A DNA stretch of 64,000 nt from assembly GCA_965248195.1 (NCBI GenBank), contig CBDFIQ010000002.1, forward strand, positions 1,568,001 through 1,632,000, given 5' to 3'. The notes beneath the pieces were generated by a model, which was not told where the DNA came from, searched no databases, and was given only the letters and a program-made list of their open reading frames with translations. The DNA is from Longimicrobiales bacterium (lineage in GTDB: Bacteria > Gemmatimonadota > Gemmatimonadetes > Longimicrobiales > Gaopeijiaceae). The stretch's first letter is position 1. Every line of letters starts with the position of its first letter. The position numbers and the translations under genes are program-made. Of the stretch, positions 7,603 to 61,359 are shown in pieces.

Positions 7603-7699
7603 GGGGGCGGAGGAGGTCTGGTGGCCTCACTGGTCTTCAAAACCAGCTCGCCCGGCTAAACCCCGGGTTGGTGGGTTCGATTCCCACACGTTCCCGCCA
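7603..7699 (+). tRNA. selC: tRNA-Sec (anticodon UCA)
   Basis: 97 nt. 6-bp D stem GAGGTC/GGCCTC with TGGT loop, CTGGT-CTTCAAA-ACCAG anticodon arm, long variable arm, GTGGG-TTCGATT-CCCAC T arm, G-CCA end. Confidence 0.93.
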
Positions 7700-34043: not shown

Positions 34044-36767
34044 ATGAGCGGGACCAACGGAAAGGGCCACAACGACCTCACGCTCTTCCTCGACGGCGAG
34101 GAGGTGTCGTTCAGCCGCGGCGAGACCATCTACGAGGTCTCGGAGCGGCACGAAAGAGAGATCCCCACCCTCTGCTACGATCCCCGTCTCGACCCGTTCG
34201 GCGGCTGCCGCCTCTGCATCGTCGAGTTGGAGGGCGCTCGAAACCCGGTCGCCTCGTGTACTACGGAGGCTACCGCCGGCATGAGGGTCAAGACCAGCGG
34301 CGGCCGATTGGACATGCACCGGCGCGTGCTCCTCGAGTTGGTCGCCTCCGAGAATCGCGAGGTGGATGTGGATTCGCTCTCGGGTTACGCGTCGCAGGAG
34401 TTGGCGCAGCTGGTCGACCGATACGAAGCCCGTACGGGGCGGTTCCGCGGGCGCCAGTCGGGCACGAGTCACCCGAACGATCCCAACCCCTTCATCATGC
34501 GGGACTACGAGAACTGCATTTCTTGTTATCGCTGCGTTCGTGTGTGCGCCGAGCAGGAGGGTGACTACGCCATCACGGTGATGAACCGGGGCTTCGAGAC
34601 GCAGATAACGACCGAGTTCGACGGCCTGCTCAAGGACTCCGCGTGCACCTTCTGCGGGCAGTGTGTGCAAACCTGCCCCACCGGGGCCCTGGCCGACCTG
34701 AAGGCGCTACGGAACGTCGAGGTCGCGGGCGCCACCGAGAAGACGCGGACGGTCTGCACGTATTGCGGGGTCGGCTGCTCCATCGACGTCCTGACGAGGG
34801 GCGATGAGATTGTGGGGGTCCTGCCGGGAATGGACGGTCCCGCCAACCACGGCGCCCTGTGTGTGAAGGGCCAATATGCCTACGACTTCGTGGGGCATCG
34901 CGACCGTCTTGCCACGCCTTACGTGCGGGGCGATGACGGCCAGCTCCGGCCCGCATCGTGGGACGAGGCACTCGATCGTGCCGCTGCGGGGCTGGGCGGG
35001 GTCATCGCGGAGCACGGCCGCCACAGCTTTTTCGGGATCGCCTCGGGCCGGGCTCCGAATGAAGCCGCGTACACGATGCAGAAGTTCGTGAGGGCTGGGT
35101 TGGGTACCAACTACATCGACAACTGTAGCCGTGCTTGACACGCTCCTACTGTCGCCGGTCTGGCGGCAAGCATCGGTCGGGGCGCCATGTCGAACCCGTT
35201 GGCGGACATGGACAAGCCCGATGTGATCTTCTGCATCGGGACAAACATGACGGAGACCCACCCCGTGGCCGCCACGGGCCTGAAGAAGGCCTTGGCCAGG
35301 GGGGCGAAGATGATCGTTGCCGACCCCAGGGAGATCGAGCTCGCGAGGCTGGCCCACGTGTACCTGCCCATCCGTGTGGGCTCCGACACGGCGTTGCTCC
35401 TGGCTATGGCGCACGTCATCGTGCGGGAGGGTCTGGTGGACGAGGGCTTCATGGCCGCCCGAACCACCGAGGGCCAGGAGTTCCTGGAGCACGTGGAGCG
35501 CTTCAGCCCCGCCTGGGCCGCAGAGATCTGCGAGGTACAGGCCGAGGACATCGAGAAGGCGGCCCTCTTGTACGGCAAGGCCGAGCGTGGGGCGATCTAC
35601 TACACGCTCGGGATCACCGAGCACATCTGCGGCGTCGAGAATGTGCAAAGTCTCTGCAACCTCGTCCTCCTGACGGGGAACATCGGCCGGGAGGGAACGG
35701 GCATCAACCCCATGCGCGGGCAGAATAACATTCAGGGAGCCGGGGACATGGGCGCGCTGCCCAACAACTACCCGGGGTTCCAGCCGGTCACCGACCCGGC
35801 CCATCAGGAGAAGTTCGAGAAGGCGTGGGGGACCAAGATCGATCTCGAGAAGGGCATCACCAAGGTCACGGCCCTGGACATGTGTGGAGATCAGATCCGG
35901 GCCATGTACATCGACGGTGAGAACACGGTTGTCACCGATCCGGACCGCACGCACTGCGAGCACGCGCTCAGAAGCCTCGACTTCCTGGTGGTCACCGACC
36001 TCTTCATGACCGACACGGCCGAGCTGGCCGATGTCGTTTTCCCGGCCGCCGCCTGGGCCGAGGTGGACGGGACCCAGACGAACACCGAGAGGCGGATCCA
36101 GCGTCTGCGGGCGGCCGTACCGCCTCAGGGCGATGCCATGCCCGACTGGTGGATCACTTCCCAGCTCGCGAAGCGTATGGGATTCCAGGGCTTCGATTAC
36201 GAGGGGCCGGACGATGTTTTTAATGAGTGTTGCGAGCTGTCGCCGATCTACCAAGGGGTGAGCTGGGACACGGTCGAACACGGTGAGTACATATGGCCCA
36301 TCCCCTTCGACGGCCATCCGGGGACACCCCGACTGCACGAAGGAGAGTTCGTCAACGGCCGTGGCATCTTCACAGTCGCGGAATACCGGGATCCGGCTGA
36401 GACCATCGACGACGACTACCCGGTGTGGCTCACCACGGGCCGCAGGCTGGCGTCGTACCACACGCGCACGCAGACCGGGCGATCCGCCGGAATCGAGTAC
36501 CTCCTGTCCGAGGAGGTCCTGGAGGTCCACCCGACGGATGTGGAGGAATGGGGTCTCGAGGACGGAGGCTGCGCGATCGTCTCCAGCCGCCGGGGATCGG
36601 TCCGGGTGAAGGTCCAGGCCAACAACCGCTCGCCGAAGGGGACGGTGTTCACCACGTTCAGCTTCAGCGACGTTCCCGTAAACGTGCTCACCGGATCCGG
36701 GTACGATCCCATCACGCAGACCGCCGAGTTGAAGGTCTGCGCGGTGCGTGTGGAGCCTGCTACGTAA
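34044..36767 (+). CDS. fdhF: selenocysteine-containing formate dehydrogenase alpha subunit (907 aa, Sec365)
   Basis: ORFs 34044-35138 and 35187-36767 share a frame; the junction reads DNCSRA-UGA-HAPTVAGL...GAMSN; NuoG-like Fe-S N-terminus, CTYCGVGC, RGQNNIQG. Confidence 0.93.
35139..35168 (+). promoter_or_regulatory. bacterial SECIS element of fdh
   Basis: TGTCGCC-GGTCT-GGCGGCA hairpin at 35150-35168; loop G 19 nt after UGA; resembles the E. coli fdhF SECIS. Confidence 0.85.
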
Positions 36768-58125: not shown

Positions 58126-58183
58126 ACCCTACTTTCATAACGGTTCTCGGATTCGGCCTTGTCAAGTACCTGCGGTGTCCACC

Positions 58184-59559
58184 GGTAGTGTCCCTAGATT
58201 TGTGTAAAAGCGGATAAGCTGGACAGGAGGGAAAGAAAAACGGAAGCTCCTCTGTTGTTGTTCACTGTCACATGAACCCGGGAGTCCGGGTCTGCAGAGC
58301 AGGCTCGGAACCGGAGAGGAGCTTCCGATGCAAGAGATTGTGGAGATCGGTCGGGCCACGCAAGACGAGCTACGCGATGATTTGCGCGAGCTGTTTCAAG
58401 GCGCGATCCGGCTGACGCTCGAGATGGTGCTGGAAGAGGAGCTGAAGGCCATGGTAGGTGCACGCCGCTTCGAGCGGGTGGGAAGCCGGAAGGACCATAG
58501 GAACGGCACATACCTGAGGCGGCTGCTGACGAGCCTGGGGCAGATCGAGGTCGCCATGCCCCGGAGCCGGGACAACGGTTCGCCGGCCGACGTGATCGGC
58601 CGCTACCAGCGCAGGAGCCCCGAGCTCGACGAGATGATGGTCGAGGCGTATGTGAGCGGCGTGTCACAGCGCAAGATGGGCGACGTCACCGAGGCGCTGA
58701 TGGGCGAGCGTGTTGGGCGCTCGACGGTGAGTCGTGTGGCAAAACGGCTCGACGAGGCCGTGGAAGGGCTGCGCCGTGCGCCGATCGAGGGGCCTCACCC
58801 CTATCTGTACCTGGACGCCACGTTCTTGGACGCCCGCTGGGCCCGCAAAGTCGAGAACGTGAGTGCGCTCGTGGCGTATGCAGTGGGCCCTGAGGGTCAC
58901 CGACGGCTCCTGGCCGTCACACTGGGCGCTGAGGAGTCGCAGCAGAGCTGGTCGGAGCTCCTCGAGCAACTCCAGGACCGCGGCCTCGGCGGTGTCGAGC
59001 TCGTGATCGCCGATGAGCACGCAGGCCTGGCAGCTGCGGTCCGCCGCTTCCTGCCCGAGGCACGCCGTCAGAGGTGTACGGTCCATCTGCAGCGTAATGT
59101 GGGGGCGAGGGTCCCCCACCGCCTACGCAAGCGCGTGGCGCGTGAGGTCTCGGTGATCTTCCAGACATCCGGACTCGCCGAGGCGAAGAAGCTCCTGGGC
59201 GAGTTCGGCGCACGCTGGAAGAAGGAGCTGCCCGAGGCCGTGGAGGTCCTGGAGCGGGGCTTCGGGGCAGCGACGCAGTTCTACGCGTTCCCCGAGGCGC
59301 ACTGGCCCCGGCTGCGTACCACCAACAGCCTCGAGCGGCTGCACGGCGAGATCAAACGCAGGATCAAGGCCGCCGGCGCCTTCCCGGACCGGGCCAGCGC
59401 CCTCAGGCTCATCACGGCCGTCGCACTCAGGACCACACACGTCTGGGGCGACCGGCGTTACCTCGACCTCTCACTCCTCCAGAAACAGGAGGTCGCCCAA
59501 GCAGCCTAGCCGAAGGCGAGGAGCTTCCTCCGCTTTTACACACAAATCGGGACTTGACC
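58184..59559 (+). mobile_element. IS256-family insertion sequence
   Basis: 31-bp imperfect IRs (GGTAGTGTCCCTAGATTTGTGTAAAAGCGGA vs reverse complement GGTCAAGTCCCGATTTGTGTGTAAAAGCGGA); flanks GTGTCCACC/GTGTCCGAC form an imperfect duplication. Confidence 0.9.
58328..59509 (+). CDS. IS256 (Mutator) transposase
   Basis: RNG, YLYLDAT, IADEHAGL, QRCTVH, RTTNSLERLHGEIKRR. Confidence 0.95.
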   Translation: MQEIVEIGRATQDELRDDLRELFQGAIRLTLEMVLEEELKAMVGARRFERVGSRKDHRNGTYLRRLLTSLGQIEVAMPRSRDNGSPADVIGRYQRRSPELDEMMVEAYVSGVSQRKMGDVTEALMGERVGRSTVSRVAKRLDEAVEGLRRAPIEGPHPYLYLDATFLDARWARKVENVSALVAYAVGPEGHRRLLAVTLGAEESQQSWSELLEQLQDRGLGGVELVIADEHAGLAAAVRRFLPEARRQRCTVHLQRNVGARVPHRLRKRVAREVSVIFQTSGLAEAKKLLGEFGARWKKELPEAVEVLERGFGAATQFYAFPEAHWPRLRTTNSLERLHGEIKRRIKAAGAFPDRASALRLITAVALRTTHVWGDRRYLDLSLLQKQEVAQAA

Positions 59560-59745
59560 GTGTCCGACTCCGTCGAGAACGGGTAGAATCCCGACGGTAT
59601 TCCCCAGCTTTGTGGCGAACTGGGGGACTAACGGCCTTCCAGCAGTCGATGCCCCCGTGAGTGGTACGCACAGATTGCGGCTCTGAGCGCCCGGCCATAC
59701 GTTACTGCGACCGCCGCCTATAACCTTACAGATGGAGGTGAAGGA

Positions 59746-60234
59746 ATGGCTTTCGGGAAAGTCACGAAGTTGGGAGTAGGAGCCGCAGCGCTTACCCTTA
59801 TCGGGATCGCGGGTATCGGGTTCGCTCCTGCGCCGACTCAGCTTCCGACCGTCACGGTGCACCTCAGCCCTACCTGAGGATGCTGCAGCCAGTGGGTGGG
59901 TCACCTACGAGACAACGGTTTTGAAGTAGCACTCTTCGAGGTCGATGACATCGCGGCACACCAAGAGGAGCACGGAGTCCCTGCCGAGTTCAGAGGGTGT
60001 CACTCGGCCCAGGTGGGAGGCTACATGGTCGAGGGCCACGTTCCCGCGGATTTGCTCAAGCGCTTCTTGGAGGAGCATTCGAGCATGGCAGGCATCACCG
60101 TGCCCGGCATGATCATGGGTCCACCAGGGATGGAAGGGTCGGTGTCGGTGCCCTATGCCGTTCTGACGTTCGACCGGGAAGGCAAGAGCACGATCTACGA
60201 GTCGCGACGTTCTGAAGTTCGAGTAGGAAGGTAA
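59746..60234 (+). CDS. DUF411 metal-binding protein, predicted selenoprotein (Sec44, UGCC motif)
   Basis: GGAGGTG RBS, ATG, signal peptide, then VTVHLSPT-UGA-GCCSQWVGHL in frame with ORF 59896-60234 (GCHSA, VEGHVPA, VPGM..G.PGMEG). Confidence 0.8.
59878..59908 (+). promoter_or_regulatory. candidate SECIS element
   Basis: GTGGGTG-GGT-CACCTAC hairpin at 59892-59908; loop G 22 nt after UGA; GGTC apex as in the fdh SECIS. Confidence 0.65.
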
Positions 60235-60875: not shown

Positions 60876-61359
60876 TTGTTGATTCGTGCCGCTGTAACGG
60901 AGGACTCTGAGGCCATCTGGGGCATCTTCCACGAGGTAGTCTCGACTGGTGACACCTATGCCTACGCTCCTGACACTGGCCGAAGCGAAGCGCTGCGGCT
61001 TTGGATCGAGGAACCCCAATCGACCTACGTGGCGGTGGACGAGGGGGGAGTCGTTGGCACGTATTACCTGAAGCCCAATAAACCTGGGCTGGGCGCACAT
61101 GTGTGCAACGCGGCGTACATGGTTACGAGTCAAGCACGGGGCCAGGGCCTGGGACGCGCAATGTGCGAACACTCGATTGCCGAGGCACGCCGACTCGGCT
61201 ATCGGGGCGATGCAGTACAATCTGGTCGTGGCTACGAACGAAGGAGCTATCCGGCTCTGGGAGAGGTTGGGGTTCACGATCACCGGCAGATTGCCGGAGG
61301 CGTTTCGTCACGCCGAGCATGACTTCGTGGACGCAGTGGTGATGTACCGGCTGCTCTAA
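60876..61359 (+). pseudogene. GNAT acetyltransferase with a one-base insertion in a G run at 61204-61207
   Basis: ARGQGLGRAMCEHS...LGYR continues as AMQYNLVVATNEGAIRLWERLGF in the next frame. Confidence 0.8.

Follow-up and report, generated by a model that had tools for sequence, protein, structure and literature searches.

Copper resistance protein CopG of Pseudomonas aeruginosa (structures 6WIS and 6WJE) and CutG of Rhodobacter capsulatus are the closest described relatives of the gene discussed here. In the parts of three reviews that treat it (PMC7558416, PMC8456105, PMC8872213), CopG is a periplasmic, thioredoxin-like protein that holds a four-copper cluster through a CxCC motif and two methionines, and it is proposed to oxidise Cu(I) or to hand copper on; for the role of the first cysteine in the cluster we follow those reviews. 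The sections of PMC8456105 on R. capsulatus describe CutG as largely dispensable, and CutO activity as independent of the CutG cysteine motif.

Two groups of selenoproteins in Table 1 of PMC13188914 also invite comparison. The first comprises predicted thioredoxin-fold selenoproteins with a UxxC motif (Trx, Grx, DsbA/G-like proteins, and the UGC-containing TlpA), which carry selenocysteine (Sec) at the N-terminal cysteine of CxxC on a thioredoxin-like fold, have an in-frame SECIS element and possess widespread cysteine homologues; UxxC is the most frequent motif in that table. The second comprises predicted selenoproteins in which Sec likewise stands for cysteine in metal resistance: the SO_0444 Cu/Zn efflux transporter, an E1-E2 cation ATPase, a CopZ-family 2Fe-2S protein, and a MerT-like protein.

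The gene described here lies in the window, by which we mean the whole 64,000-nucleotide stretch of DNA that was analysed. It shares with CopG and CutG the predicted fold, the position of CxCC, the CH, GHVP, and M-x6-M motifs, and a predicted export signal; in contrast to them, it has TGA as the codon of the first cysteine, a hairpin downstream of that codon, and a location outside any cop/cus/cutO cluster. It differs from the UxxC selenoproteins in belonging to another family, with an additional cysteine (UGCC) and a His/Met copper-ligand set. Its sequence is unrelated to those of the metal-handling selenoproteins; here the cysteine homologue CopG has a solved multi-copper structure, which allows selenium to be positioned at a metal site that is already known. 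The gene is real and very probably recoded—a new Sec variant, widespread and mis-annotated, within a known copper protein family. More specifically, the CopG/DUF411 gene is intact and its TGA very likely read as Sec; we think it probable that the product is a copper-binding redox protein, predicted to be exported, with selenium in place of the first cysteine of CxCC. The features of the locus, all on the plus strand, are as follows:

59734..59741, plus strand: Shine-Dalgarno sequence GGAGGTGA, read from the sequence.
59746..60234, plus strand: CopG/DUF411 gene, 162 aa with TGA read as Sec (frame, PF04214, and structure matches).
59746..59835, plus strand: predicted export signal with K5, K8, a hydrophobic stretch, and an Ala/Pro-rich end; boundary approximate (by eye, with a hydropathy/regex count).
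59875..59877, plus strand: in-frame TGA, predicted Sec44, aligned with the first Cys of CxCC (homologue comparison).
59875..59886, plus strand: U44-G45-C46-C47 motif, which is also a UxxC opening helix 47-56 (sequence, model).
59892..59908, plus strand: hairpin of 7 pairs with a GGU loop, a predicted SECIS element of the bacterial type (folding, cross-gene comparison, and the criteria in the Fig. 2 legend of PMC13188914).
59896..59898, plus strand: GTG (Val51), false start of gene callers, giving a product without the signal and without all of UGCC.
59998..60003, plus strand: C85-H86, invariant in our alignment A1.
60031..60045, plus strand: E96-G-H98-V-P100, invariant in A1.
60109..60132, plus strand: M122-x6-M129, invariant in A1, equal to the Met pair of CutG/CopG (motif from the relevant part of PMC8456105).
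60300..60325, plus strand: terminator-like hairpin 3' of copG, weak (1 found against 0.7 expected).

A preliminary description of the window had proposed a ribosome-binding site ahead of an ATG at 59746, and SPT-TGA-GGA-TGC-TGC in frame with an intact DUF411 body; the sequence bears this out, with GGAGGTGA, the ATG, the TGA, and a terminal TAA at 60232-60234 all in place, as does the Pfam match of the read-through protein. At the copG locus, a search for sigma-70 promoter matches returned none and an Rfam search returned nothing meaningful. By hydropathy and regular expressions, a signal-like hydrophobic N-terminus is found in 115 of 116 TGA genes (Tat-like in 31, lipobox-like in 9).

The only Pfam match of the 162-aa read-through is PF04214 (residues 83-129, E 5e-19, 68.2 bits against a curated cut-off of 27), and the only sequence match among solved structures is CopG (6WIS/6WJE). 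An AlphaFold model built with cysteine at position 44 and a 44-row alignment has a pLDDT of 84, falling to 55-67 in residues 1-30; Foldseek places it on 6WJE/6WIS with E 2e-12, rmsd 1.9 A, and 39% identity. The window gene retains the CopG ligands C46, C47, C85, H86, H98, M122, and M129, so that two residues of CxCC are present and the first position, a TGA, is functional only if recoded. Among 108 full TGA genes the ligand set is kept in 102-106, with CH, GHVP, and M-x6-M as strict as in the cysteine (Cys) genes. The metal-binding or redox role suggested at first can be refined: DUF411 is the characterised CopG family, and the metal is therefore most likely copper.

TGA at codon 44 recurs well beyond this genome. 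Among 30 loci of close relatives it is found in 6, with TGC/TGT in 24; in a wider set of 73 CopG loci the position is TGA in 13, TGC/TGT in 60, and no other stop in any. A DNA search for the pattern U-[GA]-C-C-x-x-W-x-x-H matched 16 of 301 genomes of the host's family, against 0 control matches (some CopG is present in 248 of the 301); 13 of these were translated, 2 coincide with tblastn CopG matches, and the remaining one is G197. The same pattern occurs in 21 of 351 Acidobacteriota genomes, where 19 are full CopG frames, and at 120 or more metagenome loci, from which about 1100 stretches are estimated in the collection; of the 120, 109 show homology to the body of CopG and share 31-80% identity with the window protein. 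The name of a homologue at 57% identity suggests that the host is probably a member of Gemmatimonadota. A collection of viral sequences gave 3 pattern matches, none of them a CopG frame, and a scan of genome contigs gave 23 loci with no further TGA form. In a sample of 401 Pseudomonadota genomes the single match was rejected as due to chance; a TGA clade whose shortened database relatives are named Burkholderiales/Betaproteobacteria or Pseudomonadota therefore rests on metagenome contigs and on those names. TGA aligned to cysteine is thus common to relatives rather than peculiar to this assembly, and the form is not lineage-specific, since it also occurs in Acidobacteriota and in this Betaproteobacteria-like clade.

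In a quickly computed tree, from which rows shorter than 85 aa had been removed and in which one spurious row (L061_C2) remained, the window gene sits within an 11-member all-TGA clade with SH-aLRT 98. Sec and Cys forms are mixed over the tree with 19 changes, yet the well-supported branches force only 1, and the 19 do not prove that the switch arose repeatedly. Contigs from four runs of four studies, mostly from relatives, cover the codon, and among the matches listed there is no change at 59875-59877. RNA-library contigs (X15, X17, X19) also bridge the TGA; by themselves they are no sign of transcription.

Downstream of the TGA, bases 59892-59898 pair with 59902-59908 (7 pairs, including one G-U) around a GGU loop at 59899-59901, which starts at the 22nd base after the UGA, leaving a 21 nt spacer; the folding energy is -8.9 to -9.1 kcal/mol. 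The 7 pairs and the spacing agree with the preliminary description; its GGUC apex does not, as the loop is GGU and the C belongs to the closing pair. The Fig. 2 legend of PMC13188914 gives for bacterial SECIS elements a loop of 3-9 nt with G at its first two positions, a stem of 4-16 bp, a distance of 16-37 nt from the UGA, and an energy of at most -7.5 kcal/mol—compared with this published model (rather than by bSECISearch), the window hairpin falls within every range. Taken alone, it is no more stable than chance (z -0.75, with 44 of 200 shuffles folding as well); only when genes are compared with one another does it become significant.

For that comparison we defined a six-pair core, from 18-34 to 23-29 in nucleotides numbered from the U of UGA. 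Of 118 distinct TGA genes, 94 have the whole core, as do 4 of 58 Cys genes, which supports the earlier expectation of a hairpin conserved with the TGA. The hairpin overlaps the WxxHL codons, and the search pattern itself fixes Trp and His codons inside the stem; the control was therefore a resampling of synonymous codons with the protein sequence kept, and over 200 rounds of it the core appeared in 24 TGA genes on average and in 38 at most. Clustering does not remove the difference: at 70% identity the core is the majority state in 28 of 37 TGA clusters and 3 of 30 Cys clusters, and at 65% in 16 of 20 and 3 of 20, respectively. In the Cys set, Vicinamibacterales and the host's own order are over-represented; six of its rows that lack the His, perhaps divergent or spurious, were dropped from the clustered counts. 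The set includes locus L014 of genome G037, and genome G056 enters one tally only, with no conclusion depending on either.

Pair 22-30 is G-C in 84 TGA genes, A-U in 17, G-U in 9, and A-C in 8, swapping between G-C and A-U along with a change of Val to Met/Ile in TGA genes and not in Cys genes; a p-value for this covariation overstates it, because kin are not independent. The rare Leu codon CTA stands in the stem in 27 of the 118 TGA genes and in none of the 58 Cys genes; in the gene bodies it accounts for 22 of 697 Leu codons. The loop residue shifts from E/D in 43 of 58 Cys genes to G/V in 72 of 118 TGA genes. The full core is absent in this register from 24 of 118 TGA genes; of these, some have a fold whose register is shifted, and in a few the fold is weak. 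By these comparisons selection acts on the hairpin in TGA genes, and the TGA would very likely direct Sec insertion, with SelB binding the GGU-loop hairpin and delivering Sec-tRNA to the UGA. In four loci of an Acidobacteriota-like TGA clade (L092, L112, L180, L197) the hairpin is strong (-12 to -16 kcal/mol) and its register is shifted, possibly a second SECIS solution.

If Sec is inserted, what does the protein do? Retention of the copper-cluster ligands makes a selenolate-ligated copper redox protein the likeliest function, and we regard it as probable. The most likely place for selenium is the copper site, judging from the strictness of the His/Met ligands in TGA genes and from one TGA clade that lies amid copper genes. 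The precursor would be exported, as predicted, and the mature protein would bind copper via U44/C46/C47 and the Met pair; it could then interconvert Cu(I) and Cu(II), or pass copper to cuproproteins, as the reviews cited above describe for CopG in their sections on it. Given Sec, we consider copper binding with either of these activities quite probable, by analogy with that protein. More speculatively, a selenolate might bind Cu(I) more tightly and withstand over-oxidation. Because synthesis would need Sec-tRNA, the amount of protein would be expected to track selenium supply.

The most serious competitor accepts the selenoprotein and disputes the copper: the product could be a glutaredoxin-type UxxC thiol-disulfide oxidoreductase, or a general periplasmic soft-metal scavenger, in which Sec44 attacks and there is no copper-specific role. 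Glutaredoxins and thioredoxins do follow CopG in the Foldseek results, far more weakly (E 5e-3 and worse), and a profile aligns the first cysteine with the N-terminal CxxC cysteine of Grx and DsbC, with E 0.08-0.14, which is not significant; the frequency of UxxC in the PMC13188914 table points the same way. So does the neighbourhood, called by a heuristic gene pick plus Pfam. The window copG is solitary, between IS256 and a monooxygenase-like gene, with no linkage to cop/cus/cueO genes and about 1.48 Mb from the genome's heavy-metal ATPase; no copper gene stands immediately beside 73 of 83 TGA loci, including the window gene and its whole clade. An immediate copper- or metal-handling neighbour (CusF, cupredoxin, P-type ATPase, YHS, or MerR) is found at the other 10, and one TGA clade lies inside cusF/cupredoxin/P-type ATPase clusters, which argues against a purely thiol-based role, as does the equal strictness of the CopG His/Met ligands in TGA and Cys genes. 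A second CopG match would permit a division of labour. On balance we find this alternative unlikely and prefer the selenolate-ligated copper redox protein.

In five genomes of the family (G018, G131, G157, G237, G280) the TGA gene is accompanied by another, weaker match to CopG; among the second matches listed, none has an internal stop. The Betaproteobacteria-like clade (L098, L099, L115, L126, L129, L130, L155), amid cusF, cupredoxin, and YHS/HMBD P-type ATPase genes, uses the A-U version of the hairpin and offers the best material for tests of copper function.

Public databases hold this protein in a shortened form, as the preliminary description anticipated of gene callers. Among the best 120 database matches, every one of the 94 that reach 60% identity begins beyond the TGA and lacks the motif (81 of the 94 begin at Val51, the GTG at 59896), and all 26 CGCC-bearing matches are below 60%. 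For a second clade, the best 120 comprise 62 shortened proteins, 54 full Cys forms, and 4 others, two of which read W; none of the retrieved database proteins contains U. These records, and the gene callers' prediction of a product from GTG 59896, are what would favour taking the TGA as a true stop, with a 43-aa leader, a separate 112-aa cytoplasmic protein, and a hairpin governing re-initiation. That arrangement leaves unexplained both the invariant G-C-C-x-x-W between TGA and GTG and the retained signal peptide of CopG length, while other TGA clades have no start codon there, or a different one; we consider it very unlikely, and read-through with Sec far better suited to the data.

The host has what read-through would require. 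selA, selB, and selD all pass profile cut-offs in the genome, selD itself carrying a TGA, and the tRNA-Sec matches Rfam:

7603..7699, plus strand: selC tRNA-Sec (UCA); ARAGORN found no other tRNA with a UCA anticodon in the genome.

This tRNA and a formate dehydrogenase TGA near window position 35136 (UHAP-type, by the motif label in the PMC13188914 table) agree with the earlier report of selC and a Sec-FDH, and an absence of selA/selB, which would have spoken against Sec, is not what the genome shows. Consistent with an expectation that TGA forms occur only in selA-positive genomes, selA was found in 18 of 19 TGA and 52 of 61 non-TGA genomes of Acidobacteriota, and in 11 of 12 TGA and 27 of 36 comparison genomes among the host's relatives; this co-occurrence does not separate the two kinds of genome, given how common selA is in these phyla (baseline 75-85%). 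The two exceptions are G018, which is 78% complete, has neither selA nor selB found, and also lacks a match of EF-Tu strength, and G584, in which selA was not found.

If the genetic code were altered, or a suppressor tRNA present, the TGA could stand for Trp, Gly, or Cys, and JGI records P0154 and P0185 do give W; however, TGA terminates 543 of 1015 long open frames in this genome, relatives use it as the terminal stop of this very gene, no UCA tRNA was found other than a canonical tRNA-Sec, and the W reading of P0154 runs on into CusF, an apparent false fusion that looks like a gene-caller code error. This explanation is highly improbable beside Sec. Equally improbable is that the genome, rich in insertion sequences, contains a decaying gene whose TGA is a nonsense mutation or an error of assembly. 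An IS256 element that ends 188 bp upstream of the start, with roughly 110 near-identical BLAST matches in the genome, would favour this; conservation of the TGA refutes it, since the codon recurs across phyla in genes whose identity falls to 40%, is followed by open frames with intact ligands, and is the only stop at position 44 in the 73 loci.

The Sec form appears to be uncatalogued in the sources covered. Table 1 of PMC13188914, a 2026 review of 119 families that includes those of Haft and Tolstoy 2025, has no PF04214/DUF411/CopG row in the part consulted; no NCBIfam 20.0 model matches the read-through at E 0.1; and DUF411 is not listed in the portion of deep-Sep consulted. BSepDB, by its partial description, builds on previously reported families. 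A full-text search of openly available literature found no Sec form of CopG/DUF411.

Two lineages each carry the TGA form in about 5% of their genomes, and annotation reduces its product to a cysteine-less fragment. If our reading is true, an abundant family, with its roughly 1100 estimated stored metagenome stretches, would be added to the selenoproteome. To our knowledge, selenium at a copper site has been studied only in engineered proteins; since the Cys form has a solved copper-cluster structure, its effect there is directly testable in natural Sec/Cys pairs, and the presence of both forms within one genus provides a ready comparison. We advance only tentatively the fuller proposal of a widespread, uncatalogued selenoprotein family with an encoded selenolate on a multi-copper cluster, in which a natural Cu-Se redox centre, repeated Sec/Cys switching across phyla, and copper handling tied to selenium supply might come together.

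Several minor observations concern the same genome. Two FDH-type genes with TGA and hairpins, together with the Sec-type selD, are recorded at about window position 35136 (plus strand), at G000 C2 2783465, and at L040; the loops of the two FDH-type genes are GGUCU and GUU, the former resembling the copG loop. A motif-plus-hairpin scan of the genome for further selenoproteins passed 154 of 2982 candidates, mostly noise, and was set aside. The IS256-family element occupies window positions 58183-59558 on the plus strand (ORF 58328-59509), and its BLAST matches, at 99.4% identity or more, lie on both contigs, indicating a very recent expansion. A GNAT gene at 60876-61359 (plus strand) is apparently split over frames 60876-61322 and 61099-61359, possibly by a frameshift or an assembly error. 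Elsewhere, at G000 C1 1071378-1073597, 17 tRNA genes are arrayed in 2.2 kb.
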